Assembly: GCA_964560795.1 (NCBI GenBank)
Contig: CAZLNX010000001.1
Location: 227-64,226 of the forward strand
Source: an uncultured Anaerolineales bacterium
GTDB taxonomy: Bacteria > Chloroflexota > Anaerolineae > Anaerolineales > UBA11858
Direction of reading: 5' to 3'
Length of the DNA stretch: 64,000 nt
Positions 16,014 to 64,000 of this stretch are shown here, piece by piece. The position numbers and the translations under genes are program-made. Below the pieces are notes generated by a model, which did not search any database, had not been told where the DNA came from, and saw only the letters and a program-made list of their open reading frames with translations. Every line of letters starts with the position of its first letter. Position 1 is the first letter of the stretch.

Positions 16014-16868
16014 CTAGGCATCTTCTTTGGGTTTATGATCGCGCCAGTAGCTGATATAGCGGGTACCATAGGTATCGCGTCCCATCAGCAGATCGGTCGC
16101 CCGAATGGTGCTGGCCAGCTTGATGGGATCAGTGATAGCACAGGTAGCGCCCTCGCCCATCGCCAGCGACAAGAATGCCTGATTGACCGTGTGTCGGTCT
16201 GGCAGGCCAAAAGATACGTTGCTAGCTCCCAAGTTGATGTTGACTCCGAATTCCTTCTTCAATAATTGAACCGTTTGCAGCGTCACTGCGGCAGCATTGC
16301 TATCGGCGCCTACGGTGAGCACCAACGGATCGATGACGATATCTTCGATACCAATGCCCAGTTTAGCAGCTCGCTCGATGATCTTCTCAGCAATGGCGAC
16401 GCGCGTTTCGGCATCATTGGGAATACCATCATCGTCCATGGTCAGTCCTATCACCGAAACACCATGTTCACCGACCACAGGCAAGACAGCATTTAGTGAT
16501 TTCTCTTCGCCATTGACAGAGTTCACCAAAGGTTTTCCTGGAAGTACAGCCAAGGCTGCTGCTAAGGCCTCATGATTGGCAGAATCCAGGCACAGGGGTG
16601 TATCGACGGATTCAGCGACGATCTTAGCAACCTCGGGCAGCACGGCCACTTCGTCAAGGCCGGGCACGCCAACGTTGACATCCAGAATATCCGCCCCGGC
16701 TTCGACCTGTTTGATCGCTAAGCCACGGACATATTCATAGTCGCCTTCTTTTATCTTTCCGGCCAAGATCTTTCGTCCAGTAGGATTAATCTTCTCCCCG
16801 ATAATCACAAAGGGGGCATCATAACTGATGGTTACTTCTTGTTTCTCGCTTTTCAATATGGTTTTCAT
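16014..16868 (-). CDS. pterin-binding methyltransferase (methyl-corrinoid:tetrahydrofolate, MtgA/AcsE/MtrH-like)
   Basis: 284 aa TIM-barrel pterin-binding domain. Blocks IIGEKINPTG, GADILDVNVG, LCLDS, NSVNGE, GASNVSFGLP. Confidence 0.85.
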   Translation of the reverse strand: MKTILKSEKQEVTISYDAPFVIIGEKINPTGRKILAGKIKEGDYEYVRGLAIKQVEAGADILDVNVGVPGLDEVAVLPEVAKIVAESVDTPLCLDSANHEALAAALAVLPGKPLVNSVNGEEKSLNAVLPVVGEHGVSVIGLTMDDDGIPNDAETRVAIAEKIIERAAKLGIGIEDIVIDPLVLTVGADSNAAAVTLQTVQLLKKEFGVNINLGASNVSFGLPDRHTVNQAFLSLAMGEGATCAITDPIKLASTIRATDLLMGRDTYGTRYISYWRDHKPKEDA

Positions 16869-16910
16869 GGTTTATTCCTTTCTTCTAAGTGTCGAATCTG
16901 CTGTGGGGGA

Positions 16911-18284
16911 TTAGAACGTTACACCAATTTGGATAAGTTCATCTTTGACTTCGTGATACATACCCAGCCATTCAGGCGTAGGTTGCAGGGTACTCAAATC
17001 ATATACCTCTTGGAAAGGCTTACCGATTGGCTGGGATGGCAAATCATCTTCATAGATCGCCAGAAGTTTCTTGACAATCTCATCGGCTTGTTCGCGGCTC
17101 ATCCCGGCGGCGGCATGGGCGACTTCGGCGCTGAAACGAGATTCCAGGCCGCTGCAGTGGCACGAGTTGGTGCCCGTGGCAGTCATGCATGCCTGGGGAA
17201 CAGTGAGACCAGAAGCCACCCCGGAGATGATGAAGGCGGCACATTCATACAGCAAAGATTTTGTGCCCGGTCCCGCGGCAGGTTTGCAGAGCGAAGCCGT
17301 CAGCATCTTGCTGTGTCGCGAGATGGCCTGAAAAGCCAGACTCTGCGCCCAAAGCGATTCGGGAGTGGCATCGCTGTGCAGGAAGGGGTGCGCCGAACTA
17401 ACGCTGATGGTGGTGCCCATGTAATTCTGATTGACCACGATCAAACCTGCTGCCAGGCCAATGACCACACCTTCAGCACCGCCCAAAAAACCGCCATAGA
17501 TGATATTCAAATATCCTTCCATGTGTGCACCAATGCGGGTGATGTGAGCCACTTTGGAAAGTAAATCATAATTGGTTTTGAATTCACTGGGTGCTGAAAC
17601 ATGGTGCCAATCGCTGGGGCGAACACCACCCCAGGAAGCAGCCGAAATCTGAGCCAGAGCTGTAGGAGAGATCTCAATACAGCCAATAGGCATACCCGGT
17701 CTGCCAGCCCGGTTGATGGTCTCGAAAGATAACTCCGTTTCGCGCCAACCGCCCAACACTTCCCATGGTGAAGCTGCTTTAATGGGATGGCCGTAGACGC
17801 GCTCGATGGTCGGATTCTCGATGACATCGATCAACGGCTCCTGAGCATAGCTGAGCATGATGGGCACGAACATATCTTCAGGCACAGGGACACCGAAGGG
17901 ACCTCCTACAAAGGCCGGCGCACTGGGGGATTCCGGCGTGCGAGCCTTGATCGTCACTGTATCATTGCCGGTTCCTAAGACTACTTCTCCCGGGCAACTA
18001 CTCAAACCCTGCAGGTATTCATCTTCTGTCCAGGTGATGCGCCGGTTGGTATCCTGACAGAACATACCTACTTCGACGGCGAATTCCAAGCCGGCCTGAA
18101 AGATGCGATCCGCCAGATCGTCATCGGCGGGCACGATGGTGGCACGATCAAACTTGATATCATATTTTTCAATTAACCGTTTGACCGTCGAGGTGATCAA
18201 TTTGGCTTCGAACTCTTTTTCGTCAATGATAGGGCCAGTTTCTGCCCTGTGAAGGATATCTAAGAGACGTCCACGATTTTTCAT
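16911..18284 (-). CDS. MttB-superfamily methyltransferase paralog 1 (non-Pyl; subfamily A)
   Basis: 457 aa, uninterrupted. Family blocks RAETGPIIDEKEFE, DDDLADRIFQAG, SDWHH, GPGTKSLLYE, SGLESRFSAEVAHA. Its ATG overlaps the TGA of the upstream Mo subunit (ATGA at 18281-18284). Confidence 0.85.
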   Translation of the reverse strand: MKNRGRLLDILHRAETGPIIDEKEFEAKLITSTVKRLIEKYDIKFDRATIVPADDDLADRIFQAGLEFAVEVGMFCQDTNRRITWTEDEYLQGLSSCPGEVVLGTGNDTVTIKARTPESPSAPAFVGGPFGVPVPEDMFVPIMLSYAQEPLIDVIENPTIERVYGHPIKAASPWEVLGGWRETELSFETINRAGRPGMPIGCIEISPTALAQISAASWGGVRPSDWHHVSAPSEFKTNYDLLSKVAHITRIGAHMEGYLNIIYGGFLGGAEGVVIGLAAGLIVVNQNYMGTTISVSSAHPFLHSDATPESLWAQSLAFQAISRHSKMLTASLCKPAAGPGTKSLLYECAAFIISGVASGLTVPQACMTATGTNSCHCSGLESRFSAEVAHAAAGMSREQADEIVKKLLAIYEDDLPSQPIGKPFQEVYDLSTLQPTPEWLGMYHEVKDELIQIGVTF

Positions 18285-20548
18285 TGTTTTTCTCCTTCAA
18301 TTGCGGCCAACACCCGTTCAGGGGTCAGCGGGATTTGGGTCATTCGTATTCCAATGGCATCAGAGACAGCATTGGCAATAGCAGGGGCGGTGGACATCAG
18401 CGAAGGCTCGCCAATACCAACCGCACCATGGGGGCCCAGAGGTTCCGGAATTTCGAGCAGCTTCGTGACTGTCTCTGGCGCATCCAACGAGGTTGGGATC
18501 AGAAAACTTTCCAGGGAATCGCTTAATGTGCGGCCGTCTTCCACGACCAGCTCTTCCATGAGCGAGTAGCCGGTGCCCATGGTGCAGGCTCCCAGCAACT
18601 GGCCGTAGGCGCCGCCATAATTGATGATGCGACCCACGTTCTGGACAGCGTAGATCTTTTCGACGACCACTTCGCCGGTTTCGATATCCACCAGCACCTG
18701 GGCGATCTGCGTTCCAAAGGCTGAGGGACCGACGCCGACATAATCGCTCTTCCCATATATCTCTTCGGGAAATTCCATGGCATAAAAGCCATCGGCATGC
18801 ATGGGGCGGTTGGCAAAGGTGGCCTTGGCCGCCAACTGGGGGACGGTGTAATTGAGCAGTTCTCCCTCGGCATACAAACGACCACCTTTCAGGGATAACA
18901 GGTCCATGGGGAGACCGGTTTCCTCGGCAGCAGTTTCTATCAAACTGTTGCGGATCACAGCTGAGCCCCTTAGTACTGCATTCCCGGAGACGAAAGTCTG
19001 ACGAGAGGCTGCGCTGGGTCCTGCATCCAGTGTTTTGTCTGTATCCGGGCCGATCACCCGGACAGAATTCAGATCCACGCCCAGGGTTTCGGCAGCTATA
19101 CTTGCCAGGACTGTGAAGACACCCTGGCCCATATCTACCGCGGCTGTGCGCAAGACCACTGTCCCGTCTGTAGCCATCTCAGCAATCACGCTGGCATTAT
19201 CCTGGCCTCTGCCCAGGCCGATGACAAACCAGGTCGATGACAAACCCCAACCGCGCCGCAAATTGGGCGCGGGCTGGCGTTCAACCTGATCACGCCCCTG
19301 CCAATCGGCCATCTTGGCGGCATCTTCCATGCCCACTTTGATGGCTTTCACTTCGCGGATTGTGGCGCCCATAGGGGTTGGCTGATCTTTTTCTATCGCA
19401 TTGCGCATCCGAACTTCCAGGGGGTCCAGACCCAGTTCTTTTGCCAGGGCATCCATCTGGCCTTCATAGGCCAGCGCCACCTGCGGGCCGCCAAAGCCGC
19501 GCATCGCCCCGCCGATGGGGTTATTGGTTCGCACACAAAAAGCTTCAATCCGAGCATTGGGTACAAAGTAAGGGCCAGTGGAAACAGATGCCCCAAACCC
19601 CATGATATAGCGGCCAGCATTTTCGTAGGGTCCGGTGTCTCCGATGGTCTCGATTTGAACGGCTGTGAGTTTCCCGTCGGATTGCGCCCCCAGGCGGTGC
19701 TTGACGATCACCGGCACACGCTTGACATGTGTCAGGATCGACTCTTCCCGGCTGCGCATCAGGCGTACCGGCTTTCCCGTCACCCGTGCCAGTAAGGCGG
19801 CATGGATCTGAACGTGGACTTCGTCCTTGGCACCGAATCCCCCACCCACAAACGGTGTGACTACACGCACGCTGTGCTCGGGAATATTCAAAGAACGGGC
19901 AATCTGCATGCGGTCTCGATGCGGGGCTTGATTCGAAGCATAAACAACCACCGTACCATCGAGGTCAATATAGGCCAGAGCACCTTCAGGCTCTAGAAAA
20001 GCGTGCTCGATCCATTGGGTCCGATAGGTATTCTCGATGATCACATCGGCGGTATCAAAGCCCGCATCCACATCTCCAATTTCGAACAGTGCGCTGGGGA
20101 TGACATTGTCATAACCGGGCAGCGCATCTGCAGCATCGGGGCTCATCGCTTCGACGGGATCAAAAATCCCTGGCAAAGGTTCATACTCCACCGCGACGGC
20201 ATCCAAGCCTGCCTGAGCCGCGTCTTCATCTTCAGCGGCCAATGCCACGATGGCATCGCCCAGGTAATTGACGCGATCGACAGCCAGCAGCGGCATATCG
20301 GCCTCGTGGTAAAGATAACTGTTCTCGCCAGGGATATCTGCATGAGTCAACACAGCTACAACGCCGGGCACGGCGCGCGCCGCCTCAACATCGATATTGA
20401 GAATGCGGGCGCAGGGATGAGCGCTGTACAAGAGCTTGCCGATCAGCATCCCGGGCATGTGGAGATCCTTGGTGTAGCGCGCCGCGCCGGTTAGCAGTTG
20501 CTGGTTTTGAATTGCAGGAGCAGGAGCACCAATGACATCATTGGACAT
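18281..20548 (-). CDS. xanthine dehydrogenase-family molybdopterin-binding large subunit
   Basis: 755 aa. Block PFVGGGFGAKDE and C-terminal GIGEPS active-site Glu context. Its start overlaps the end of the 2Fe-2S subunit by 11 nt. Confidence 0.9.
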   Translation of the reverse strand: MSNDVIGAPAPAIQNQQLLTGAARYTKDLHMPGMLIGKLLYSAHPCARILNIDVEAARAVPGVVAVLTHADIPGENSYLYHEADMPLLAVDRVNYLGDAIVALAAEDEDAAQAGLDAVAVEYEPLPGIFDPVEAMSPDAADALPGYDNVIPSALFEIGDVDAGFDTADVIIENTYRTQWIEHAFLEPEGALAYIDLDGTVVVYASNQAPHRDRMQIARSLNIPEHSVRVVTPFVGGGFGAKDEVHVQIHAALLARVTGKPVRLMRSREESILTHVKRVPVIVKHRLGAQSDGKLTAVQIETIGDTGPYENAGRYIMGFGASVSTGPYFVPNARIEAFCVRTNNPIGGAMRGFGGPQVALAYEGQMDALAKELGLDPLEVRMRNAIEKDQPTPMGATIREVKAIKVGMEDAAKMADWQGRDQVERQPAPNLRRGWGLSSTWFVIGLGRGQDNASVIAEMATDGTVVLRTAAVDMGQGVFTVLASIAAETLGVDLNSVRVIGPDTDKTLDAGPSAASRQTFVSGNAVLRGSAVIRNSLIETAAEETGLPMDLLSLKGGRLYAEGELLNYTVPQLAAKATFANRPMHADGFYAMEFPEEIYGKSDYVGVGPSAFGTQIAQVLVDIETGEVVVEKIYAVQNVGRIINYGGAYGQLLGACTMGTGYSLMEELVVEDGRTLSDSLESFLIPTSLDAPETVTKLLEIPEPLGPHGAVGIGEPSLMSTAPAIANAVSDAIGIRMTQIPLTPERVLAAIEGEKQ

Positions 20549-21041
20549 CGCTCACCTCCTGGATCATAGCAGCGGCATGCTTCACCGAATCGATTATCGG
20601 CGCATAACCCGTACAACGACATAAATTCCCGGCGATGGCCCGTTGAATCTCCTCACGGGTGGGGTCCGGTTTCTTTTGCAATAGTGCATAACTTGACAAC
20701 AACACCCCAGGGGTGCAGAAACCGCACTGCAAACCCCACTTCTCGGCGAAGGCTTGCTGCAAAACACCCAGCTCGCCATCGGGTGCCAGCCCTTCGACGG
20801 TTAGCAATTCCTTCCCATCTGCCTGGGGTGCCAGTACGAGACAGGAATTCACGGCCCTGCCATCCATGAGAACAACGCATGCGCCACAATCCCCCTGGCT
20901 GCAGCCATCCTTTGTTCCCGTTAATCCCAGATCTTCTCGTAAAAGGTGCAAAAGGGTCTGGTGAGGAGCAGTTGTTACCTGTTTTTGCTCTCCATTCACA
21001 GTAAATTGGATTTCTACGTCGGCCATTAATTTTTCCTTCAA
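20538..21041 (-). CDS. [2Fe-2S] small subunit of Mo hydroxylase
   Basis: 167 aa with CSQGDCGACVV and CRCTGY cysteine clusters. Confidence 0.9.
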   Translation of the reverse strand: MKEKLMADVEIQFTVNGEQKQVTTAPHQTLLHLLREDLGLTGTKDGCSQGDCGACVVLMDGRAVNSCLVLAPQADGKELLTVEGLAPDGELGVLQQAFAEKWGLQCGFCTPGVLLSSYALLQKKPDPTREEIQRAIAGNLCRCTGYAPIIDSVKHAAAMIQEVSDVQ

Positions 21042-21051: not shown

Positions 21052-22434
21052 TTACTTTAACAACATTTTTGCACGCTGGTTATGCTTTTCAACGTGCGTC
21101 CCAAGATCGGTGGTTTGCAGGCAGCCCTCTTTAACGATGAACTTACCGCCAATTACGGTGTAATCCGCTGTCACTGGCGCACAAAAGACCAACGCTGCCA
21201 GGGGATCATGCAGCGCTCCCGTGAATGCCAGCTGATCCAGATTGACAGCAAAGAAATCAGCGCATTTACCAACTTCCAGGGAACCAATATCATCACGCCC
21301 TAACACCGCCGCGCTCCCACGGGTGGCTACACGCAGGGCCTGACGGGCAGTCATCAGCGGAGACGATTCATCTCCGGATAATGAAGCCCCTTCCAATCCG
21401 GCAGCCAAACGTGAAAGCAGCATTGCCTGACGAACTTCTCCAAGCATATGCGAGCCATCGTTGCTGGCAGAGCCATCCACACCCAGCCCCACCTTGACAC
21501 CCACCGTGAGCATCTTGAGCAGCGGTGCGATCCCCGAAGCCAAGCGCATATTCGAGCTCGGGCAGTGGGCCACCCCACAGCCCGTTTGGGCATATTGAGC
21601 AATTTCGGCGTCATTGACGTGCACCGAATGCGCAAACCAGACATCCGAGCCGATCCAATCGACCTGCTCCATATAGGCCACCGGCCGGTGACCGAACAAC
21701 TCAATGCAGAACTGCTCCTCGTCCTCGGTCTCCGCCAGGTGCGTATGCAGCTGCACACCATATTCTCTAGCCAAGGCAGCGCTGGCCTTCATCAAGTCAC
21801 CGGTGATGCTGAACGGGGAACAAGGCGCCAGCACAACCTGCGTCAGGGAGCCCGGGTTGGGGTCATGATACTGTTCGATCAGACGCTGGCTGTCTTTCAG
21901 GATGAAATCCTCGTCTTCCACCACGCTGTCCGGGGGCAGGCCGCCATCACTCTCGCCGCGGCTCATCGAACCCCGGCTGGCGTGCAGGCGCACGCCGATG
22001 TCCAACCCGGCCTGGATCTGGTCGTCCAACTTCGATCCATTGGGGAAGATATAGAGATGATCCGAAGCCGTTGTACACCCCGAGAGTGCCAATTCCGCCA
22101 GCGCTGTGATGGTCGAAACATAGATGTCTTCGGACTGCATGCGCGCCCAGATCGGATAGAGCGTTACCAGCCAGTTGAACAGGTTGGCATCCTGCGCGGC
22201 AGGCACCGCCCGGGTCAGCGTCTGGTAGAAGTGGTGATGGGTATTGATCAGGCCTGGCAGCACCACATGGCCTGACAGGTCGAGCACCTCATCGGCTGTT
22301 TCGGGCAGTTCTGATGAAACACCTACCTGCTCGATGAAGCCATCCCGAATGAACAAACCCCCATCACCAATTTCGCGTTCCTTGTCATCGAAGGTGGCCA
22401 GCAGGGTTGCATTTCGAACGAGTAAGGTTGACAT
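21052..22434 (-). CDS. amidohydrolase, 8-oxoguanine/isoxanthopterin deaminase-like
   Basis: 460 aa. Blocks PGLINTHHHFYQTLTR, LYPIWAR, SGCTTASDH, LAPCSPFS, HTHLAE, CPSSNMRLASG, GVDGSASND. From memory these match the 8-oxoguanine deaminase / hydroxyatrazine hydrolase clade. Confidence 0.8.
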   Translation of the reverse strand: MSTLLVRNATLLATFDDKEREIGDGGLFIRDGFIEQVGVSSELPETADEVLDLSGHVVLPGLINTHHHFYQTLTRAVPAAQDANLFNWLVTLYPIWARMQSEDIYVSTITALAELALSGCTTASDHLYIFPNGSKLDDQIQAGLDIGVRLHASRGSMSRGESDGGLPPDSVVEDEDFILKDSQRLIEQYHDPNPGSLTQVVLAPCSPFSITGDLMKASAALAREYGVQLHTHLAETEDEEQFCIELFGHRPVAYMEQVDWIGSDVWFAHSVHVNDAEIAQYAQTGCGVAHCPSSNMRLASGIAPLLKMLTVGVKVGLGVDGSASNDGSHMLGEVRQAMLLSRLAAGLEGASLSGDESSPLMTARQALRVATRGSAAVLGRDDIGSLEVGKCADFFAVNLDQLAFTGALHDPLAALVFCAPVTADYTVIGGKFIVKEGCLQTTDLGTHVEKHNQRAKMLLK

Positions 22435-25425: not shown

Positions 25426-25548
25426 AAATTCTTCCTTTTTTTCAAGTGACTGCAATCGGCGAGAGGCCAAACGTATCGCCTGGCCTGATCGCCTATTGCA
25501 ATTTTCGTATCATGTTAGCTTTATCAATTATTGATAATGTGATCTTTC

Positions 25549-54986: not shown

Positions 54987-56046
54987 GATATTTCATCAAC
55001 GCTCGGCTGACCAGCACTGAGATGAGAACAAGAGCCTGTATTACGAAGGTAATTGAGGAATGTACACCGGTTGAAGTGGCCATAACTACGGATCCGTTGA
55101 TCAAGCCCCCGAAGAATATCGCCGTTATGATCACGAATATTGGGTTTAATTCCGCCAGCATGGCCACAATGATTCCCGTGTAGCCATAGCCGGGTGAAAT
55201 ATCCAAATTGACATTGTGGTGGACCCCAAATAATTCACCCACTCCTGCCAACCCGGCCAGACCACCACTGAGGAACATGGTGATTAGCGTTAATTTTTTG
55301 ACATCGATGCCTTTGAACTGGGTGGCGACAGGATTGGCGCCTAAGGCACGTAAATCAAAACCATAAGGGGTCCTTTTCATTACCCAGTAGATTAGGATCG
55401 CTAGGCCAATGGCGATCAGGAAACCCATATGCAGCCTGGAACCTTCGATCAGCACCGGGTACCAGGCATCCTTGGGGATGATGGCTGAACGCGGATAAAA
55501 GTGGTTAGGGTCCATCCAATATTTATGGTCATAGAGCAGGAATTGCAGCGCGGTGACAATAATGTAATTCAACAACACCGTACTGATGATAATATCGACA
55601 TTGAAACGCGTTCGTAGCCAACCTGCCAGCCATCCCAGCAATGCCCCACCAAAAAATCCGGCTATTACTAGTATTGGTAGAAGTGCAATAGGAAGTAAAA
55701 ATGGGTAAAGTATCTGATATATAGCATACGAAAGCATCGCCCCAGCGAACAACTGACCTTCCTGGCCGATCGACCAGATCTGCGCCCGAAAAGCGATCAC
55801 CGTCGCCAGCGCGGTGAGCAACAAGGGAGATGAGCGCATCAGCGTGTTCAATATCTTTCGTTGCTCGCCAAAAGCGCCGTCGAACATCGCGGTGAAAGAT
55901 TCAATCGGGTCATGGCCAGTCAGGCTGATGACCCACCCAGAGATTGCAATTGCAACCAAGAGACCTACAATCACCACCACAATTTGAATGAGAGGGTGGA
56001 CTTCACGCCTCTTAACTATCTCAATACCCAGAGCTTTTAGCATCAT
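54958..56046 (-). CDS. ABC transporter permease (BMP/nucleoside-type system)
   Basis: 362 aa polytopic protein. There is a 4-nt overlap with the ATPase gene. Confidence 0.8.
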   Translation of the reverse strand: MMLKALGIEIVKRREVHPLIQIVVVIVGLLVAIAISGWVISLTGHDPIESFTAMFDGAFGEQRKILNTLMRSSPLLLTALATVIAFRAQIWSIGQEGQLFAGAMLSYAIYQILYPFLLPIALLPILVIAGFFGGALLGWLAGWLRTRFNVDIIISTVLLNYIIVTALQFLLYDHKYWMDPNHFYPRSAIIPKDAWYPVLIEGSRLHMGFLIAIGLAILIYWVMKRTPYGFDLRALGANPVATQFKGIDVKKLTLITMFLSGGLAGLAGVGELFGVHHNVNLDISPGYGYTGIIVAMLAELNPIFVIITAIFFGGLINGSVVMATSTGVHSSITFVIQALVLISVLVSRALMKYRVRRIPHVR

Positions 56047-57587
56047 GGACCTTCCTTGACTCCGGCCATCAAGAGACCGATCTTATCAATATCTGCATCG
56101 GCAGCGTCAAAAATACCTAGAATCTCGCCCTGGAAAACTACAGCAATGTGATCTGAGAGGGTCAGGATCTCATCCAGGTCTTCTGAAAACAACAGGATAC
56201 CCACTCCTTCACCACGTAACTTAAGAAACTGATTGTGTACGTACTCGATCACACCTACATCCAGCCCACGGGTGGGTTGGCTAGCGATGAGTACTTTCGG
56301 GCTGCTACCGATCTCGCGTGCCAAAACTACCTTTTGCAGGTTTCCGCCTGAAAGATTACCTGTGACGTGATCAATGGAAGGCGCTGCGATTTCATAGTCT
56401 TCTAAACCCTCATTCGCAAATGAACGGATAGCTTTGTTGTTTAACTGCGTTCCCTTGCGGAAAGGTTCATTCCATTCACGGCCCAGAATCATATTTTCGG
56501 CAATGGTGAAATCCATCACCAAGCCTTCCTTGATACGATCGCTGGGCACATGCGCCATGCCCATCGATTGAATGTGTCCGACGCTCTTGCCGGTGATGTT
56601 GTCACCGTTCAACATAACCTGGCCACTCTCTAACTGGCGCATTCCGATCAGCACTTCAAAGAGTTCTTTCTGGCCATTGCCCGCCACACCGGCAACACCG
56701 ACGATTTCACTTTGATGCAAATACAGGTCAATACCACGGACGCATTCCAAGCCAATGTCGTTACAAGCCTGAACACCTTTGATCTCAAGCACCGGTTTTC
56801 CCCGATCGATTTGTTCCCTTTTTACACGGAAGACCACATCGCGCCCGACCATCATGCGCGCCAGCCCAGCCTTGGATACTTCCCATGAGTTAACGGTATC
56901 GATCTTCTTACCTTTTCTCAGCACAGTCACGCGATCTGAAACCTGCACCACCTCATTTAACTTATGGGTGATGAAGATTATTGAGAGATCATCAAAACTC
57001 ATCTTCTTCAAGATCGAAAAAAGACGTTCACTTTCCTGGGGTGTCAGCACGGCAGTTGGCTCATCCATGATCAGCAAATCCACGCCGTCATAGAGCGCCT
57101 TGAGGATTTCCACCCACTGCTGCTCCCCCACGGAAAGCTGCCAAATGAGGGAGTCGGGATCCATATTGACATTGTACTGCTCGCACAGCTCGGTGATGCG
57201 CTCCCGGGCAGCTTTTTCATCGAGGAGCATCCCCGGTGTGTCACGACCCAGCAAGATGTTTTCCAGTACGCTGTGCGTATCCACCAGCATGAAGTGCTGG
57301 TGCACCATGCCGATGCCCAGATCCATGGCTGCCGCAGGAGAGGATATGTCGACTTTCTCCCCTTTCCAATAGATCTCACCAGCATCGGGTGAATAGAAAC
57401 CAAACAGTGATTCAGCCAGTGTGGATTTCCCAGCGCCGTTCTCCCCAAGCAAACAGTGGATTTCTCCTTCGCGCACTTCGAAATCAACCGCGTCGTTAGC
57501 CAACACTAAGGGGAATTGTTTGGTCAGTTTTCTTGTTTCCAGCAATATTGGGCCATGCCCTGTTGGAGTTTCGACCGTACGGTCCAA
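56043..57587 (-). CDS. ABC transporter ATP-binding protein with two ABC domains
   Basis: 514 aa. Walker A GENGAGKST, signature LSVGEQQ, and a second degenerate domain (LSGGNLQK). TTG start preceded by AGGAGG. Confidence 0.9.
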   Translation of the reverse strand: MDRTVETPTGHGPILLETRKLTKQFPLVLANDAVDFEVREGEIHCLLGENGAGKSTLAESLFGFYSPDAGEIYWKGEKVDISSPAAAMDLGIGMVHQHFMLVDTHSVLENILLGRDTPGMLLDEKAARERITELCEQYNVNMDPDSLIWQLSVGEQQWVEILKALYDGVDLLIMDEPTAVLTPQESERLFSILKKMSFDDLSIIFITHKLNEVVQVSDRVTVLRKGKKIDTVNSWEVSKAGLARMMVGRDVVFRVKREQIDRGKPVLEIKGVQACNDIGLECVRGIDLYLHQSEIVGVAGVAGNGQKELFEVLIGMRQLESGQVMLNGDNITGKSVGHIQSMGMAHVPSDRIKEGLVMDFTIAENMILGREWNEPFRKGTQLNNKAIRSFANEGLEDYEIAAPSIDHVTGNLSGGNLQKVVLAREIGSSPKVLIASQPTRGLDVGVIEYVHNQFLKLRGEGVGILLFSEDLDEILTLSDHIAVVFQGEILGIFDAADADIDKIGLLMAGVKEGP

Positions 57588-57605
57588 GGCTTCCTCCTCT
57601 TATTC

Positions 57606-57638
57606 GGGTGTGCCTCTAACAAGTAGAGAGGCACACCC
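57606..57638 (-). promoter_or_regulatory. intercistronic stem-loop between the binding-protein and ATPase genes
   Basis: Perfect 12-bp stem GGGTGTGCCTCT / AGAGGCACACCC with a 9-nt loop. No T-tract follows on the coding strand. Confidence 0.6.
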
Positions 57639-57721
57639 AATTTGAAATTGAAAACCCAAGGTTTTGTTCTTTGATAGCTCAGCGTTTGTCAAAAACCTTT
57701 TAGGTTATCACCTAGTAAGAA

Positions 57722-58864
57722 CTACTCTGATGCGGGCTCCTCGATATTGAGTTCAGGAACAATCGAGCCATCCATGATTCCCGCGATGGTGGCGTTAAAC
57801 TGCTCGAGTACATCAGCAGGCAAGGTCTCTTCAATGCCTTCCCCGAGTTTCACAGTGCAAGCGCCAGTAGCCATGTTGTTCTCGAAGCCATTTCGAATAC
57901 CACCGTTCCATTCACCGGTTGTCTTGTACTTCAGCCACTCCTGCAAGGCCCACTCATAGCCAGGTTCCCAGGTAGCCAGGTAACTGGCCATCACATTGCC
58001 AGGGTATAGTTCACTGAAATCGATATAGGGGCCGTAGCACATCGCGCCAGTACCAGGGCCACATACGTCGAAGTTCTCAGCGGCCATGAAGAGCTGGTCG
58101 GCACCAGCAGCTTTCTGGGCCTCGGCTAACTCGCCGGCAGCAACAGGGTCGTACCAGGAGTTAATGAAGCCAACCTTCTGCTTCAATTCAGGCTTAACCG
58201 ATTTTGCGCCCTCGAAGAAGGAGTTGAGCACATCATTAACATCTTCTGCGGGGAAGCCGGCAGCAGCACCGATAACAGTGCCTTCAGTCACCAAGCCCGC
58301 CAGAACGCCCATGGCGTAGACGCCGTCGTAACAACGGTACATGTAGTGATAGTTGTTTTCGACGCCATCGATCCAACCCGAACCTACCTCAATGAACATC
58401 ACATCTGGATAGTCTGGAGCGACGTTGAGAACGATGTCATTGTAACCGCCGTGCATCCACATGACATCACAGCCACTCTCGGCGTATTCCCGCATGGCAG
58501 CTTCGGCCTCATCTCCCCACAATCCTTCGACGAAGCGCAGCTCGAGCACTTCGATGTCCGCACCGGGGTTCTCAGCAAAGCGCAAGAAACTCTCATGACC
58601 AGAGCGGTCCCAGCCGTTGTCGGTGATGGAGGTCGAGTATATGGTGCAGAACTGCACCTGGGTGGGGGCTTCCATGGCCTCTTCTTCGGCCGGTTCTTCT
58701 ACCACTTCTTCTTCAGCCTCTTCCACTTCCTCGACGGGTTCTTCGGCAACCGCTTCCTCAGCAGCAGGTTCTTCTGCGGCCGGCTCAGGAGCTGGCTTGC
58801 AGGCTGCAAAGAGCATGCCAAAGACCACCAGCAGACTTAATACAAGCATAAATTTTTTAGACAT
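57722..58864 (-). CDS. BMP-family (PnrA/Med-like) ABC substrate-binding lipoprotein
   Basis: Start trimmed to ATG 58864 (MSKKFMLVLSLLVVFGMLFAAC: signal peptide plus lipobox Cys). An E/A/P-rich linker is followed by a periplasmic-binding-protein fold. The family call is tentative. Confidence 0.7.
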   Translation of the reverse strand: MSKKFMLVLSLLVVFGMLFAACKPAPEPAAEEPAAEEAVAEEPVEEVEEAEEEVVEEPAEEEAMEAPTQVQFCTIYSTSITDNGWDRSGHESFLRFAENPGADIEVLELRFVEGLWGDEAEAAMREYAESGCDVMWMHGGYNDIVLNVAPDYPDVMFIEVGSGWIDGVENNYHYMYRCYDGVYAMGVLAGLVTEGTVIGAAAGFPAEDVNDVLNSFFEGAKSVKPELKQKVGFINSWYDPVAAGELAEAQKAAGADQLFMAAENFDVCGPGTGAMCYGPYIDFSELYPGNVMASYLATWEPGYEWALQEWLKYKTTGEWNGGIRNGFENNMATGACTVKLGEGIEETLPADVLEQFNATIAGIMDGSIVPELNIEEPASE

Positions 58865-58985
58865 CTTTACTCTCCTCTTGGTATCAACTTTGTAATTAGT
58901 TTGATTCTGGTAACCAAATCTCATTTACGTTCCATCTTCCTCCTTTCGATCTCAAAAAGATACAACTACAATCAGCCACTCTCCT

Positions 58986-59744
58986 TCATAATATCCGCCG
59001 TATAGTTTCATATTTACTTGCAACTCCAAATAAATGCTCCAGGGAGTGAAATACGGGCTTCCCATCGCTGGTGAATCCTACATCCTCGATGACCAACACA
59101 GGGGTATTCAGTGCATAATCTGAAAACTCTTCTGGCAGATTGCAGCTCTCAACGGTTTGGGGATAAAGGCATGATGTCAAATGATCTATCGGTGTATTAC
59201 ATTTTTGCCTGAAAAATTGAAAGAATGGCTCGGTAATTCCTGGTTGGGTAATTTGATCCTGGGAAAAATAATTTTCGAATACCCAAAGGGGGATATGGTT
59301 GATGATGTAAATGATGGGTTTGTTGTCGGCCGTCCAGATTTTCTTGATCTGCAGAGACTTTCCACCCTTTTCGATCTCCAGCTTTTCGGTGATCCCGGCA
59401 TCCGTATTGACGATATCTGCCCCCAACTGCTCAAAACCCGACTCGAATCCCTGCATGGCAATGCGGTCATCGAAATCGATCATCTGAAAAAGCGGGTTCG
59501 CAATACTGAGCTGCTTGCTGACAAAGGTGCCAATGCCCTGGCGGCGTTGGATCAATTTGCGCTCTTCGAGCTTGGCATAGGCGCTGCGCAGCGTGGCCCT
59601 GCTGACATTGAACTCTTCAATTAACTCATTTTCAGTGGGGAGCTGGCTTCCTGGATGATAGACACCTTCCTTGATCCGATCAATGAGAATTCGCAGCACT
59701 TGATCGGCAAGGGAAGGTTGACGGACCAGTTTTAACTCATCCAT
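58986..59744 (-). CDS. GntR-family transcriptional regulator (HutC-like)
   Basis: Start trimmed to ATG 59744 (MDELKLVRQPSLADQV). Winged helix LPTENELIEEFNVSRATLRSA plus a UTRA-like C-terminal domain. Confidence 0.85.
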   Translation of the reverse strand: MDELKLVRQPSLADQVLRILIDRIKEGVYHPGSQLPTENELIEEFNVSRATLRSAYAKLEERKLIQRRQGIGTFVSKQLSIANPLFQMIDFDDRIAMQGFESGFEQLGADIVNTDAGITEKLEIEKGGKSLQIKKIWTADNKPIIYIINHIPLWVFENYFSQDQITQPGITEPFFQFFRQKCNTPIDHLTSCLYPQTVESCNLPEEFSDYALNTPVLVIEDVGFTSDGKPVFHSLEHLFGVASKYETIRRIL

Positions 59745-59812
59745 GGTACAGGATCCTTTCGGGACACTTTGAAACCAGGTCGAGCACGCGCACGTTGAAA
59801 CATCATTCGTCA

Positions 59813-59839
59813 ATCATCAGTTGGTAGCCATCTGATGAT
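59813..59839. promoter_or_regulatory. inverted repeat ATCATCAG-N11-CTGATGAT (candidate operator)
   Basis: Perfect 8-bp arms. The spacer TTGGTAGCCAT contains the half-palindrome TGG...CCA. Starts 3 nt downstream of the -10 element of the promoter at 59843..59871. Confidence 0.5.
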
Positions 59840-60112: not shown

Positions 60113-61546
60113 TTATGCTCCAAGGGTATTGTTCCTGCGCTTGAGAGCCTTTTTCCAGCCGTCATCCATATCCAGGCCCATGCCTGTCAATGCTTCTTTG
60201 ACCTTCAAGTAAGGTTCCAGCCACTCCTGAGTGGGTTCAAGGGTATCCAGATCATACAGTTTCGGGAAAGGTTTTCCTAAATCTGGCTCGGCCAGCTTAT
60301 CCTGGTATTTCTCGAGACAGGTCAAAACCAGCTCATTGACCTCCCTGCGGGGCTTTCCCAATGTGGCATGGGCAACCTCTGCCTGGAAGCGCGCTTCCAA
60401 TCCGCTGGTGTGATCCAGTTCATTGCCACAGGTAGCCCCAATGCCGTGTTGGTGCAGCCCGCACACGGCCCCAATCATGGCGCCAGCGGCGATCTCCCAG
60501 AAAATATCCTCGGTGCCCAAACCCGACCGAGTGTAAAGATCGTTAATGGATACGACGGGAGTATTGCGCGCCAACGCTTGCCCGGCCACAGCCTGCACCC
60601 ACAACCCCAAGGGGTCAGTATTGTGTGACCACTGTAGGGACATATGCCCCATAAAATGGTAGGAAACACCATAGCACAGCACACCCAAAAGGTGACTGGC
60701 CACAGTCACCATGGCCGTGCCCTGGGCACCGCCACCCAGCCCCCCAATCAGCGGCGTCATTAGATCGACGATGTGCATGCCCACGGACTGCATATAGGCC
60801 ACCCTAGAAAGCTGGTCATAATCCGTCTTAAGTTCCGGAAGCTGCGAAACCAACAACCCATCGGAAGGGCGCATACCGTTTTCCGGCATGAACGTAGAAA
60901 TCTTGCCCGCGCAGGTCAGCGGCAAGGCCATATCTTCGATATGCATACCTGGTCGGCCGGCTTTGCGAATGGCTTCTCGAGCCTGAACCGCATCCCGCTG
61001 CGCCGCCATAATCTCTAACGGCGTGCCCGGGATGATCATGTCCCCGTGATATGTAGCTACAGAACCATGCCCTAGACAATCCACCAGGGGTTCTTGGGCG
61101 CAGCTCTGCAGGATCAAGCCGTGGTATGCTTCACTGGTTGGCGTACCCGTGGGTCCGCTGTGCATGCAGCAAGGTTCCATATCCTCCACGCCGCGATGGC
61201 GCTCGATAACGGCATCCTTGCCCGTCCCCAATACCACCGTATTTGGTGCTGCAGCGACAGCGTCTTCAACCTCTTCTCTACTAAATAATATGCGCCGCTG
61301 CGTGGATTGGTTGTAAACGCCCATTTCAAGGAACAGGTCGACGCTGGCCTGGTAAAGGCGGTCGGCCAGATCATCATCACTGGGTACGAGAACCTGCGGA
61401 TCATAGGTCAGCTCATATTCACCCACCAGCTTCATCACAGTTTTCGCCAGGGTCAGATCATATTCTGACTCTTTCATATAGGGTCCATTTTCCGATCGTC
61501 GCACGATATCTGGGAGCCAGTTAGTTTGCATAGTAAGGCCTTTCAA
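60113..61546 (-). CDS. MttB-superfamily methyltransferase paralog 10 (divergent)
   Basis: 477 aa. Blocks RSENGPYMKESEYD, DDDLADRLYQAS, SGLEARFQAEVAHA. The start may be ATG 61531. Confidence 0.8.
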   Translation of the reverse strand: MKGLTMQTNWLPDIVRRSENGPYMKESEYDLTLAKTVMKLVGEYELTYDPQVLVPSDDDLADRLYQASVDLFLEMGVYNQSTQRRILFSREEVEDAVAAAPNTVVLGTGKDAVIERHRGVEDMEPCCMHSGPTGTPTSEAYHGLILQSCAQEPLVDCLGHGSVATYHGDMIIPGTPLEIMAAQRDAVQAREAIRKAGRPGMHIEDMALPLTCAGKISTFMPENGMRPSDGLLVSQLPELKTDYDQLSRVAYMQSVGMHIVDLMTPLIGGLGGGAQGTAMVTVASHLLGVLCYGVSYHFMGHMSLQWSHNTDPLGLWVQAVAGQALARNTPVVSINDLYTRSGLGTEDIFWEIAAGAMIGAVCGLHQHGIGATCGNELDHTSGLEARFQAEVAHATLGKPRREVNELVLTCLEKYQDKLAEPDLGKPFPKLYDLDTLEPTQEWLEPYLKVKEALTGMGLDMDDGWKKALKRRNNTLGA

Positions 61547-61564: not shown

Positions 61565-62143
61565 TCAGCTTTCTTGGTCCTGAGCGAGGGCAAGTTTGCG
61601 GCCCAAATCGAAAGCTCGCTGCATTAATTCTGGTTCTTTCTCTGCATCACCAATTTTGTCTGCAGTGCCATGGACGATCTCTTCGAAATCAAACCCGACA
61701 TAGCGGCTGAAGCGGTCTACTGTGTAGATGACGGTATCGCCTCCCGATGAGTAAAGGTCCTCTGCTGCATAGACCATCAGCAGTGCCAGCTGTTTTCCGG
61801 CCAATTCGAAACCATCGGGGAGTTCCATAGCGTACCAGCGATCGATGCACAGCTTGGCCTGGGCAGTAAGACTACACCAATACACTGGGGATGCAATCAC
61901 GATGGCATCGGCGGCGCGCAGCTTCGGATACAGCTGCTGCATATCATCGCTAACCACACAGCCATCTCCATTCTCCTGGCAAAAATCGCAGGCATCACAC
62001 GGTCGGATATCCATGTCATGGAGGTAAACGCTTTCTACAGCTGCGCCAACTTCTTCAGCACCCGCCGTTAGTTGGTTGGCCAGAGTCACTGTATTGCCAT
62101 TTTCACGGGGACTGCCGTTCAAAATCAAGATCGATTTGCTCAT
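61565..62143 (-). CDS. iron-sulfur flavoprotein (Isf-like, NADPH-dependent FMN reductase fold)
   Basis: 192 aa flavodoxin-like fold (ILILNGSPRENGNT) with the compact cysteine motif CDACDFCQENGDGC (C-x2-C-x2-C-x6-C). Confidence 0.75.
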   Translation of the reverse strand: MSKSILILNGSPRENGNTVTLANQLTAGAEEVGAAVESVYLHDMDIRPCDACDFCQENGDGCVVSDDMQQLYPKLRAADAIVIASPVYWCSLTAQAKLCIDRWYAMELPDGFELAGKQLALLMVYAAEDLYSSGGDTVIYTVDRFSRYVGFDFEEIVHGTADKIGDAEKEPELMQRAFDLGRKLALAQDQES

Positions 62144-62215: not shown

Positions 62216-63640
62216 TTAGACAACTATTTTTAGACCGAATTCTTGATTGACTTCAGCAATGGCATCGATATACATCTGGTTCCACTCCGGGGTTGGATCG
62301 AGCGTCTCAAGGTCGTGCAGTTCCTGGAAGGGTTTACCCACCAGGGCTTTATCTTGTACATCTTTGTAGCGTTCGATCATCCAGGCTACAAGGGGGGCAG
62401 CCTCTGCACGCGACATACCCTGAACAGCATGCGTCAACTTGGCGACAAATAACACCTCCAGAGGCGAAGCATGCGCCGCGCTGACCCCGCATGCCGACTG
62501 GGCTGCATCGGTGTAGGAACACCCCGCCACCGCGCTGGCCACAGCCAGTCCGCCGCACTCGTAGAAGATCTCCTTCGTTCCTGGTCCGGTGGTCGGCCGG
62601 ATGAAAGGAGACGTGAGGAAATTTCCGTGGCGCGCCAGGGCTTGAATACCCAACTGCAGGGCGCGCAGCACATCCGGATAGGTGCTGGTACTGATGTGGA
62701 CATGGGTAGGACCCATGTTATTCAGCGTGCCCTGATAGCAAGCCCGCATGACGATCGAGCCCGAAACGCAGGCCAATGCCACGCCTGCCCCTCCACCAAC
62801 ATAGCCTCCGAACATGGGGTTGAAGTAGGACTCGGAAAAGGCATCGATATGGGCATAATGTGCCGCTTCCGTTAGATGATGGTAAGCCGTTTTCTGCTCA
62901 CTGATGAAATTGATCTTGTGGCAGTCGGTGGGGCGGTAGCCGCCATAGGTTGTACCGGCCAGTTCGCCCACCTCTGTCGTAGCGATCTCCACGCAGCCCA
63001 TAGCCATCCCAGGACGGCCGACGCGTTCGAGGATCTCGAAGGCTAGTTCTTTCTCCTGCCAGGCAGCGATAGCCTCTAAAGGCGACCCGGCGCGGATCTT
63101 GCGGCCACGGGTGGAAAGCAAGGTGCCCATATTGAAGATCTCGATAAGCGGCTCGCGGGCATAGGCTTCGTGGAAGGGGATAAACAGTTCTTCAGAAACC
63201 GGGATGCCAAAGGGGCCGCCGTAAATGACCACATGGCTGTCTTCCTCGGGTCTGCGGCGGACAATGGTAACTTTATCGTCACCAGTGCCAACGGTCACAT
63301 CCGGGGGCATGGCAGCGACGATCTTTTCCAATTCGTCCTTCGACCAGACCATGCGGCGCTTGGTATCGATGCAGTAGACCCCGGTCTTGGCGGCCAGTTC
63401 CATCCCAGCTTCCCAAAGCCGGTCCGCTAAGGCGTCGTCGTTTGTGACAAAGGGATCATCCTTGTCCAGCTTGATATCATATTTTTGAATGGTCTCGCGA
63501 AAGTTTTTCCCGATTACGTCTTTGTCCCAATCCTTCTCGTCCAGGACAGGGCCATTCTCAGCACGGTCCAATGCTGTCAGTAGTAATTCATAATCCATGC
63601 CATTTTTCATAGAATGCTTCCTCTCGTAATTTGTTCGCAT
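62216..63640 (-). CDS. MttB-superfamily methyltransferase paralog 11 (subfamily B)
   Basis: 474 aa. Blocks RAENGPVLDEKDWD, NDDALADRLWEAG, TDCHKINFISEQKTAY, SPLEVLFVAKLTHA. The start is probably ATG 63610 or 63598. Confidence 0.85.
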   Translation of the reverse strand: MRTNYERKHSMKNGMDYELLLTALDRAENGPVLDEKDWDKDVIGKNFRETIQKYDIKLDKDDPFVTNDDALADRLWEAGMELAAKTGVYCIDTKRRMVWSKDELEKIVAAMPPDVTVGTGDDKVTIVRRRPEEDSHVVIYGGPFGIPVSEELFIPFHEAYAREPLIEIFNMGTLLSTRGRKIRAGSPLEAIAAWQEKELAFEILERVGRPGMAMGCVEIATTEVGELAGTTYGGYRPTDCHKINFISEQKTAYHHLTEAAHYAHIDAFSESYFNPMFGGYVGGGAGVALACVSGSIVMRACYQGTLNNMGPTHVHISTSTYPDVLRALQLGIQALARHGNFLTSPFIRPTTGPGTKEIFYECGGLAVASAVAGCSYTDAAQSACGVSAAHASPLEVLFVAKLTHAVQGMSRAEAAPLVAWMIERYKDVQDKALVGKPFQELHDLETLDPTPEWNQMYIDAIAEVNQEFGLKIVV

Positions 63641-63647
63641 TACATTG

Positions 63648-64000
63648 TCAGGTCAGTTCGATCCCGAATTGCGCTTCAATTTCCTTACAAACGTTGTCGT
63701 ACTCTTGGTACCATTTGTTCGTGGGCTGAAGCGTGTCTAGGTCATAGAGCTCTGGAAAGGGTTGACCAACCAACCCCTCACTCTGAATATGCCTATATTT
63801 TTCTACCAACCAGGTAACAATTGGATCGGCGTCTTTACGTGTCATTCCTTCTGCGGCATGGGCGAGCTCACCGCAGAAACGCGCTTCCAGGGGTGTTGCA
63901 TGCATTTGATTGTTGCCCGTTGCAGATTGGACACAATCGATCAGCGCCGCGCCCGATACAACCGCGGCTAAGGTCAACGCGCCGCTCTCGTAGAAAATCT
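63648..64000 (-). CDS. MttB-superfamily methyltransferase paralog 12, C-terminal part (partial, runs off right edge)
   Basis: The frame stays open to position 64000 (IFYESGALTLAAVVSGAALIDCVQSATG ... TPLEARFCGELAHAAEGM). Aligns with the C-terminal third of subfamily B paralogs. Confidence 0.85.
   Translation of the reverse strand, partial: IFYESGALTLAAVVSGAALIDCVQSATGNNQMHATPLEARFCGELAHAAEGMTRKDADPIVTWLVEKYRHIQSEGLVGQPFPELYDLDTLQPTNKWYQEYDNVCKEIEAQFGIELT

Follow-up and report, generated by a model that had tools for sequence, protein, structure and literature searches.

The DNA considered here, referred to as the window, is a 64,000-nucleotide stretch of contig CAZLNX010000001.1 from an uncultured Anaerolineales bacterium of the phylum Chloroflexota. 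It carries a conserved gene island of ~60 kb, in which 12 pyrrolysine-free relatives of the monomethylamine methyltransferase MtmB occur together with corrinoid proteins, a BMP-type ATP-binding cassette (ABC) importer, and ring-degrading enzymes. Fifty consecutive genes, from position 4091 to position 64000, are all encoded on the minus strand. An earlier note, made from the letters of the sequence, had described positions 16014 to 64000 as an island for corrinoid-dependent demethylation and catabolism of N-methylated heterocycles by enzymes of the MttB superfamily. The idea of a methyl-transfer kit set amid N-heterocycle catabolism gains support from conserved linkage, gene overlap, a shared candidate operator, and an AtzT-like binding protein, but the assignment of the enzymes to the MttB family is wrong. 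The range is also too narrow for the features that were attributed to it, with a xanthine dehydrogenase (XDH) gene at 5701, an amidohydrolase gene at 8560, a deaminase gene at 5122, and a cyclase gene at 10796 all lying outside.

The 12 methyltransferase genes coincide with the open reading frames listed in the earlier note. In hmmscan searches of Pfam-A, each of them matches PF05369: 16911–18284 (E 1.3e-100, positions 4–449 of the 450-position profile), 24052–25470 (1.3e-91, with a likely start near 25425), 25549–26937 (2.1e-67), 35540–36919 (5.4e-92), 40759–42150 (2.1e-93), 45881–47269 (2.9e-93), 47327–48757 (6.6e-95, with a likely start near 48721), 48735–50279 (2.7e-79 over protein residues 58–505, with a longest open reading frame of 514 amino acids and a most likely start near 50126), 51068–52441 (3.5e-99), 60113–61546 (1.7e-97), 62216–63640 (1.5e-82), and 63648–64000 (3.6e-18 over profile positions 340–446), where the window ends and only the C-terminal part of the protein is encoded. 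The full-length paralogs therefore span E-values from 2e-67 to 1e-100 and cover approximately positions 3 to 450 of the profile, with the partial copy at 4e-18. The profile search for MTTB (PF06253; COG5598) that the earlier note had recommended gave the opposite of its expectation, with none of the 12 paralogs matching PF06253 at E ≤ 1e-3 and PF05369 being their only match. The same type of search yields 1e-93 for a true MTTB gene from the related locus L021. Among solved structures, the best relative of the protein encoded at 16911 is MtmB1 from M. barkeri (PDB 1L2Q/1NTH; E 1.6e-71 over residues 9–457). The sequence blocks that had been taken as MttB signatures (ETGP..DEKEFE, DDDLADR, SDWHH, GPGTK..LYE, and SGLE.RF..VAHA) are present in the alignment, but they belong to MtmB relatives. 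MttB, MtbB, and MtmB have no significant sequence homology (PMC9842639), and therefore the kinship with MtgB, MtpB, MtcB, and MtyB suggested in the note is an analogy and not a relationship. Judged by their sequences, the 12 paralogs are homologs of MtmB that lack pyrrolysine (non-Pyl homologs).

After trimming of over-long starts, the paralogs are 457 to 477 amino acids in length. Pairwise identity among them ranges from 28 to 61%, with the protein encoded at 25549–26937 the most divergent (28–34% identity to the others), and they are 27 to 33% identical to MtmB1, below the 38 to 42% that other non-Pyl MtmB representatives reach. The family as a whole is small: a profile built from the paralogs matches 1,583 of 1.84 billion 50%-identity representatives at E ≤ 1e-3, and 429 at 1e-30, so that the island holds a notable share of the diversity of the family.

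In MtmB1, pyrrolysine occupies position 202, within the motif GRPGMGV-Pyl-GPE. As advised in the earlier note, the aligned residue was inspected in the 11 full-length paralogs, where it is G, A, V, G, G, G, C, S, M, E, and G, respectively, with the alanine found in the protein encoded at 24052 and pyrrolysine in none. Both this column and the residues around it vary between paralogs, and glycine is the commonest residue in the column among 158 homologs from the window and related loci. No internal stop codon interrupts any of the 12 paralogs, and TAG is the ordinary stop codon of 16 of the 50 window genes. Within the 64-kb window no tRNA genes were found, and no pyl biosynthesis or synthetase domain (PylS/B/C/D-type) was detected in any scanned window gene, in agreement with the uninterrupted reading frames and the absence of pyl genes noted earlier.

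The window also encodes the proteins that would receive and pass on methyl groups. Four corrinoid proteins, the number previously counted from DxHxx(G/A) motifs, have B12-binding and B12-binding_2 domains and DxHDIGK or DxHDIAK motifs. They are encoded at 26941–27780 (DMHDIGK; similar to TIGR02370, below its cutoff), 33385–34059 (DLHDIGK), 50152–50829 (DLHDIGK, at the head of a run with three MtmB genes and an amidohydrolase gene), and 52594–53226 (DIHDIAK). The pterin-binding protein encoded at 16014–16868 (Pterin_bind, 1.3e-28) passes the NCBIfam model NF005719 with 299 bits against a cutoff of 259, which supports its earlier description and predicts a methyl-corrinoid:tetrahydrofolate methyltransferase (MT2). 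A CBS-domain gene adjoins the MT2 gene, following it. The protein encoded at 29331–30563 belongs to the UroD superfamily, as had been proposed, with a match to Pfam URO-D (2.5e-18) in its C-terminal half only. Its score is far below the MtaA and MtbA cutoffs, and its best PDB match is CdmB (9RUI; E 9e-33), a chloromethane:corrinoid methyltransferase of Acetobacterium that was described in 2026 and is grouped with the UroD-type substrate-side enzymes MtvB, OdmB, VdmB, and MtoB (PMC13222342). Because it resembles an enzyme that is itself of the substrate-side type, the protein is more likely to be a thirteenth substrate-side methyltransferase (MT1), one with a different fold, than to serve as the kit's second methyltransferase, the role it had been given before. 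Together these genes constitute, by sequence, a complete bacterial methyl-transfer kit of the type with many MT1 enzymes, few corrinoid proteins, and one MT2.

Several of these genes are tightly joined to genes for molybdenum (Mo) hydroxylases. The start of the MtmB gene at 16911 overlaps the stop of the upstream Mo-hydroxylase gene 18281–20548 by 4 bp, and the UroD-type gene at 29331 overlaps the Mo-hydroxylase gene at 30560, also by 4 bp. The MtmB gene at 35540 is 18 bp upstream of the Mo-hydroxylase FAD-subunit gene 34652–35521, and a gap of 3 bp separates the corrinoid gene at 26941 from the MtmB gene at 25549 downstream of it. The genes at 22480, 21052, 20538, 18281, 16911, and 16014 form a single run, with intergenic gaps of 45 bp or less.

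The three XDH-family hydroxylases and seven amidohydrolases counted in the earlier note are all recovered with Pfam and NCBIfam models. Hydroxylase set A (18281–21041) consists of a [2Fe-2S] subunit (20538–21041) and a Mo-binding subunit (18281–20548) that is similar to PucD and XdhA but below the NCBIfam cutoffs. Set B comprises a Mo-binding subunit (30560–32836), also below NCBIfam cutoffs, an FAD subunit (34652–35521), and a [2Fe-2S] subunit (34178–34651), the latter two identified from FAD_binding_5, CO_deh_flav_C, and Fer2_2 domains. In set C (4091–8469), a fused [2Fe-2S] and Mo-binding subunit (5701–8469) is accompanied by a CDA-fold deaminase (5122–5556), corresponding to the cytosine-deaminase-type gene mentioned previously, and by the maturation factor XdhC (4091–5119). 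The best NCBIfam model for the fused subunit is selenium-dependent XDH (TIGR03311; 691 bits against a cutoff of 830), with the other two Mo-binding subunits further below. Solved structures were compared with the subunits encoded at 18281 and 30560, whose nearest relatives there are 4-hydroxybenzoyl-CoA reductase and nicotinate dehydrogenase.

The tandem amidohydrolases encoded at 21052–22434 and 22480–23862 pass the NCBIfam model NF006055 with 669 and 694 bits, respectively, against a cutoff of 532, and match PDB entries 3HPA (1e-175) and 7WW2, the latter annotated as 8-oxoguanine deaminase/hydroxydechloroatrazine ethylaminohydrolase. With scores above the curated equivalog cutoff, both are predicted 8-oxoguanine deaminases of the cog0402 group. 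Curated models are also passed by the SsnA aminohydrolase encoded at 37050–38426 (NF005540; 478 bits against 444) and by the YgeY-family M20 hydrolase encoded at 38440–39681 (NF009555; 344 bits against 321). Three CodA-like amidohydrolases are below their NCBIfam cutoff: 42316–43563 (393 bits against 438), for which the closest PDB entries are E. coli CodA (1.6e-79) and then AtzC, 44465–45703, and 8560–9828. The seventh amidohydrolase, encoded at 27908–29413, is of the TRZ/ATZ type, resembling 5'-deoxyadenosine deaminase and N-ethylammeline chlorohydrolase, and is below all NCBIfam cutoffs. The cyclase previously described as formamidase-like is encoded at 10796–11677 as a cyclase/arylformamidase-like hydrolase (Pfam Cyclase, 9.5e-31). 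No betaine-type genes were found among the window genes or the recurrent neighbors of related loci, consistent with the earlier observation that the paralogs are not accompanied by betaine, choline, or carnitine genes.

Other genes are interspersed with this set. A luciferase-like oxidoreductase encoded at 39612–40631 (Pfam Bac_luciferase) is nearest to F420-dependent, Mer-like families but below the NCBIfam cutoffs for F420 luciferase-like (LLM) models, and an NADPH-dependent FMN reductase or flavodoxin-like protein is encoded at 61565–62143 between two MtmB paralogs. Half-size membrane proteins of the DMT (YdcZ-type) and EamA/DMT families, encoded at 32846–33304 and 53413–53823, are 136 to 152 amino acids long, are found at the same place in related metagenome-assembled genomes (MAGs), and might together form a small exporter or importer. 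On the same strand as the rest of the island, positions 11754–15200 encode a Na+-translocating decarboxylase-type complex (OAD beta subunit, biotin carrier, and carboxyltransferase); these genes separate two groups of heterocycle-catabolism genes. Between the CodA-like amidohydrolase gene and the cyclase gene, a 241-residue open reading frame at 9942–10667 matches no Pfam family at E ≤ 1e-3. Positions 435–4094, at the island's left edge, encode a response regulator, a HAMP histidine kinase, and a protein with an adenylate/guanylate-cyclase domain on the opposite strand.

The BMP-family ABC importer, which had been recognized before as nucleoside-type, is encoded at 54036–58924 by genes for a binding protein (57722–58924), an ATPase (56043–57587), and two permeases (54958–56046 and 54036–54986). 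The binding protein is not closest to betaine binders; its best PDB matches are AtzT (6PI5; 7e-22) and 3S99 (6e-20), with other BMP lipoproteins much further away. We take the ligands of AtzT to be guanine and hydroxyatrazine, and that of 3S99 is presumably adenine. Two GntR/UTRA regulators of the HutC type are encoded at 43582–44346 and at 58986–59813, the second lying immediately upstream of the genes for the importer.

The window contains exactly two copies of a perfect 14-bp palindrome, GTCAAACGTTTGAC. One copy, at 44369–44382, is 22 bp upstream of the regulator gene 43582–44346, downstream of which lie the CodA-like gene at 42316 and then the MtmB gene at 40759. The other, at 50858–50871, is 29 bp upstream of the corrinoid gene 50152–50829, which heads a run with three MtmB genes and a CodA-like gene. 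With one mismatch allowed, the sequence occurs three times in 1.0 Mb of related loci (L017 at 2750 and 9212; L020 at 11527), and each occurrence is orthologous: the site at 44369 is kept in both L017 and L020, and the site at 50858 in L017. The palindrome is thus a candidate HutC-type operator that may co-regulate methyltransferase and amidohydrolase genes. In a search of other intergenic regions for further shared palindromes, such as an operator for the second regulator, only GTCAAACGTTTGAC stood out.

To place the island in context, relatives were sought in a genome collection, where at least 375 loci encode them. The best 71 loci were examined, almost all of which are from MAGs of Anaerolineales or other Chloroflexota, together with Acidimicrobiia, Verrucomicrobiota, and Clostridia. 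A corrinoid gene is present in 62 of the 71. Of these related loci, 36 span at least 15 kb; in this set, 34 have a corrinoid gene, 29 an ABC ATPase, 27 a BMP binding protein, and 23 a GntR regulator; an amidohydrolase is found in 20, an XDH large subunit in 13, and one or the other in 23. XDH and such amidohydrolases are generally rare per genome. The recurring core module consists of a GntR regulator, MtmB, a corrinoid protein (often doubled), and the BMP-ABC importer. This linkage extends beyond Chloroflexota to Acidimicrobiia (L069 and L061) and, for the BMP importer, also to Verrucomicrobiota and Oscillospiraceae. Therefore, the survey of neighborhoods that the earlier note had proposed shows that the association of MtmB homologs with amidohydrolases, Mo hydroxylases, and above all the BMP importer is conserved, other phyla included, and the lack of linkage in close relatives that would have spoken against its idea was not observed.

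Synteny with the island, with gene gain and loss, is seen in MAGs CAZUSV, CAZUMA, CAZOUN, CALBUI, and CAYUXO. Loci L031 and L037 have a compact version with genes for a CodA-like amidohydrolase, an MtmB homolog of the 40759 type, the LLM protein, YgeY, SsnA, XDH FAD and [2Fe-2S] subunits, the DMT protein, the XDH Mo-binding subunit, MT2, and the CBS-domain protein. Particular paralogs keep particular partners: homologs of the 40759 clade often have a CodA-like amidohydrolase within 4 kb (8 of 13), those of the 25549 clade a TRZ-like enzyme (4 of 8), and those of the 47327 clade XDH (5 of 9), while the 60113 clade has corrinoid genes (29 of 29) and BMP importers (14 of 29) as neighbors more often than any other clade does. 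Orthologs of the paralogs in other MAGs are 77 to 95% identical, with ratios of nonsynonymous to synonymous divergence (dN/dS) of 0.02 to 0.07 where computable; for the protein encoded at 16911, the ratio is 0.022 with the ortholog in L008. Across all island genes compared with orthologs, dN/dS is 0.01 to 0.13, with dS saturated or near saturation, and the island genes are under strong purifying selection. At least 10 metagenome contigs also encode the exact protein of 16911, amid the same neighbors. An assembly artefact or a decaying array was considered as an explanation for the 12 copies and is ruled out by the synteny in several independent MAGs, the metagenome contigs, and the low dN/dS. 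All relatives come from MAGs, no cultured host was identified, and no plasmid-borne homologs were found in cultured strains.

Some related loci combine families. True MTTB genes (PF06253) or genes for GcvT-type folate-dependent aminomethyltransferases lie beside MtmB homologs in L021 (16066–17496), L027 (5607–7100), L033 (13263–14039), L061 (11396–12640 and 19094–20338), L062 (19187–20467), and L068 (12751–13980), with the true MTTB genes in the first three. Because such genes adjoin MtmB homologs, different demethylation systems are mixed in related islands.

It is very probable that the system carries out corrinoid methyl transfer with non-Pyl MtmB homologs. In the mechanism that we propose, the BMP-type transporter, under control of the GntR/HutC-type regulators, would import methylated N-heterocycles that resemble purines, pyrimidines, pyridines, or triazines. 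Each of the 12 TIM-barrel enzymes of the non-Pyl MtmB family, and the one UroD-type enzyme, would move the methyl group of its own substrate to the Co(I) of one of the four corrinoid proteins, from which the single pterin-binding methyltransferase encoded at 16014 would transfer it to tetrahydrofolate. A RACo/RamA-type activase encoded elsewhere in the genome would keep the cobalt reduced. The demethylated rings could then be hydroxylated by the three Mo hydroxylases, deaminated by the 8-oxoguanine-deaminase-type, CodA-type, TRZ-type, and CDA-fold enzymes, and opened by the SsnA, YgeY, and cyclase-type hydrolases. For the operon from 22480 to 16014, a speculative sequence of steps is that a methylguanine is demethylated and hydroxylated at C8, the 8-oxoguanine deaminases produce urate, and SsnA/YgeY-type enzymes continue the breakdown. 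Among the candidate substrates are 7-methylguanine, N-methyladenines, methylcytosines, methylxanthines, and N-methylpyridinium compounds.

The kit is physically joined to the importer and to hydroxylases and hydrolases of N-heterocycle type, and is probably joined to them transcriptionally. The direction of methyl flow, the allocation of one substrate to each paralog, and, above all, the heterocyclic nature of the substrates are inferred; heterocyclic substrates are plausible, and for them we rely on the conserved BMP importer with its AtzT-like binding protein, the matches to 8-oxoguanine deaminase, SsnA, and YgeY models, the coupling at operon level, and the absence of betaine-type genes from the window and recurrent neighbors. 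We regard the complete proposal, heterocyclic substrates included, as falling slightly short of an even chance. A broader version, in which most of the non-Pyl MtmB family would be corrinoid-dependent N-demethylases of methylated nucleobase-like heterocycles that are imported by BMP-type transporters and deliver their methyl groups to tetrahydrofolate, is more tentative still.

Several observations weigh against this proposal. No paralog is tied to a heterocycle at the level of individual residues, and the predicted substrates come from genomic context. To date, a function has been demonstrated for a single non-Pyl MtmB, the tetramethylammonium/choline:corrinoid methyltransferase MtqB/MtqC of Methanococcoides methylutens Q3c, reported in 2026, and it acts on small aliphatic amines (PMC13044021). 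Because the Mo hydroxylases and the CodA-like and TRZ-like amidohydrolases all score below curated cutoffs, their families do not fix their substrates. Neither an amidohydrolase nor a Mo hydroxylase is present within 10 kb in 13 of the 36 loci of at least 15 kb, and all of the neighborhood counts given above are raw MAG counts, with several loci coming from the same MAGs and without a random-locus baseline. In the window, no riboswitch or other RNA element that would name a ligand was found (the sole match at E ≤ 1 is a chance microRNA), nor were genes for methyl-tetrahydrofolate oxidation or the Wood-Ljungdahl pathway. A reductive activase of RamA/RACo type is also absent from the 64-kb window. 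Such genes (RACo_C_ter, 1e-81) occur in 12 related loci, namely L003 (12306–14820), L058 (7942–10453), L059 (15910–18430), and nine others, and in several of these they are near an MT2 gene. A protein of ~232 amino acids with weak similarity to the methionine-synthase activation domain is encoded in 11 related loci, and in several of these it is beside the activase near MT2.

The alternative that fares best, although we consider it unlikely, is that small aliphatic methylamines or quaternary amines are the compounds from which the MtmB-like enzymes take methyl groups, with the heterocycle genes nearby belonging to a general nitrogen-compound island and not to a shared pathway. MtqB, the sole biochemical precedent, points in this direction and has slight activity with monomethylamine as well (PMC13044021), as does the finding that about a third of the longer related loci have no amidohydrolase or XDH genes. 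However, the most conserved partner of the enzymes is a BMP-type importer with a binding protein closest to AtzT, and betaine, choline, and carnitine genes were not seen in the window or among recurrent neighbors. The start/stop overlap with a Mo-hydroxylase gene, the shared operator candidate, and the clade-specific pairing with amidohydrolases point instead to a shared pathway, and the window paralogs are further from MtmB1 than other non-Pyl representatives are.

Less probable is a pathway in which hydrolysis comes first, with amidohydrolases resembling AtzB, AtzC, and TrzN releasing methylamine or other alkylamines from N-alkylamino heterocycles (for example, of the N6-methyladenine type) and the paralogs using the amines without pyrrolysine. 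Several of the amidohydrolases are indeed nearest to the TRZ/ATZ, AtzC, or hydroxyatrazine-ethylaminohydrolase families. Monomethylamine is also the substrate of the founding MtmB enzyme, and MtqB has a trace of activity with it. For such a pathway, however, one or two amine methyltransferases would suffice, and 12 paralogs with 28 to 61% identity, maintained by purifying selection and differing at and around the pyrrolysine position, are better suited to many substrates. In addition, pyrrolysine is regarded as required for the activation of monomethylamine (PMC9842639; PMC13044021).

A reverse or biosynthetic direction, in which methyl groups from methyl-tetrahydrofolate would be placed on heterocycles or on a cofactor precursor, is very unlikely. 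Corrinoid methyl transfer is reversible in principle and its direction is not fixed by sequence, but the importer, the HutC-type repressors, and the degradative hydrolases and hydroxylases make up a catabolic layout, and known catabolic systems likewise have many MT1 enzymes for each MT2 (PMC8604678; PMC13222342). That the paralogs belong to the non-Pyl MttB superfamily (COG5598), with MtgB, MtpB, MtcB, and MtyB, can be dismissed with near certainty: both families consist of TIM-barrel corrinoid methyltransferases and include non-Pyl proteins, and true MTTB genes do occur in L021, L027, and L033, but the paralogs lack any PF06253 match, match PF05369 over its full length in all but the copy cut by the window end, have MtmB1 as best PDB match, and belong to a family without homology to MttB (PMC9842639).

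The known substrates of corrinoid-dependent demethylation are methanol, methylamines, betaine-type quaternary amines, aryl methyl ethers, methyl sulfides, and chloromethane. The literature searched describes no enzyme system that strips N-methyl groups from purines, pyrimidines, or related heterocycles under anaerobic conditions, and full-text searches found no papers that link MtmB homologs to xanthine dehydrogenase, Anaerolineae, methylated purines, or heterocycle catabolism (PMC10418091, considered as a paper on the MtmB family, was ruled out because it has another subject). A 2026 preprint reports methane formation from the N-methyl carbon of caffeine in anoxic sediment, with enrichment of Anaerolineae (8.7-fold) and Verrucomicrobiota; its authors identified no enzyme and credited Methanosarcina (10.64898/2026.01.06.697959). 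That work shows that this class of reaction occurs, and its bearing on the island is circumstantial at best. If our proposal for the island is correct, it would add a new class of substrates to B12 enzymology, give anoxic carbon cycling a methyl source, for example in the methylated bases of nucleic-acid necromass and in methylxanthine or alkylated-heterocycle pollutants, and explain the response of some Anaerolineae to caffeine in anoxic sediments. In the broader version that takes in most of the non-Pyl family, these enzymes would match, without oxygen, what the Rieske (Ndm) and AlkB-type oxidative N-demethylases do, and would open a previously unrecognized source of methyl groups to fermenting Chloroflexota and other anaerobes.

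The closest functional comparison is with MtqB, which is placed near the Pyl-MtmBs in the study that described it, and the roles of the remaining non-Pyl MtmB homologs were considered elusive by its authors (PMC13044021). We compared the window paralogs with MtqB by its description and with MtmB1 by sequence (27–33% identity). A search among the non-Pyl proteins closest to MtmB1 for a stand-in for MtqB (P0219, P0234, P0195, and P0150) led to the rejection of P0219, because its contigs have no adjacent corrinoid gene. This protein, the non-Pyl representative closest to Pyl-MtmB1 (41% identity), is encoded at L075 2647–4032 and L076 3598–4983 beside NifU, cysteine-desulfurase, and homoserine O-succinyltransferase-type genes, a context unlike that in the window. 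Like MtqB, the window system combines pyrrolysine-free MtmB homologs with adjacent cognate corrinoid proteins. In contrast to MtqB, which is encoded by a single archaeal gene, acts on aliphatic quaternary amines, and feeds coenzyme M for methanogenesis, the window has 12 bacterial paralogs with a tetrahydrofolate methyltransferase, and their genes are joined to those for a BMP importer, Mo hydroxylases, and amidohydrolases. The island and its relatives offer a concrete, testable answer about the role of non-Pyl MtmB proteins, with a defined set of enzymes, a candidate binding protein, and a candidate regulator with its operator.

The pyrrolysine-dependent MtmB/MtmC/MtbA system of Methanosarcina (1L2Q/1NTH) shares the full-length family and fold of its methyltransferase with the window paralogs and has the same class of corrinoid protein, but the window lacks Pyl202, the amber codon, and any tRNA or pyl gene, and its methyl acceptor would be tetrahydrofolate instead of coenzyme M. 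The non-Pyl MttB systems of Desulfitobacterium and Eubacterium limosum (MtgB, MtpB, MtcB, and MtyB) are also bacterial and linked to tetrahydrofolate, with many MT1 enzymes, few corrinoid proteins, and one pterin-binding MT2. Their kit includes an activase, which is not encoded in the window itself, and they use PF06253 in place of PF05369, act on betaine-type substrates, and have no described link to heterocycle catabolism. The three-component architecture is found as well in the CdmBCA chloromethane system and the UroD-type O-demethylases (MtvB, OdmB, VdmB, and MtoB; PMC13222342), with the gene 29331–30563 resembling CdmB; unlike in those systems, the window has a single such gene, which overlaps a Mo-hydroxylase gene at its start/stop.

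On the catabolic side, the window resembles the SsnA/YgeY/XdhD-type gene sets that NCBIfam describes as linked to selenium metabolism, which are associated with anaerobic purine and urate breakdown. SsnA and YgeY of the window pass the respective models and are encoded beside XDH-family subunits and XdhC. However, no selD, ygeW, ygeX, ygfK, or hyuA homologs were seen in the window, its Mo-binding subunits are below the selenium-dependent XDH cutoff, and no methyltransferases have been described in those clusters. With the Atz/Trz pathway for atrazine the similarity is at the level of families, with the binding protein related to AtzT and the amidohydrolases of the 8-oxoguanine deaminase/AtzB, AtzC/CodA, and TrzN types. 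Unlike the enzymes proposed here, those of the Atz pathway remove N-alkyl groups hydrolytically as alkylamines and not by corrinoid methyl transfer. The island joins a familiar architecture to an almost uncharacterized MT1 family and a new predicted class of substrates.

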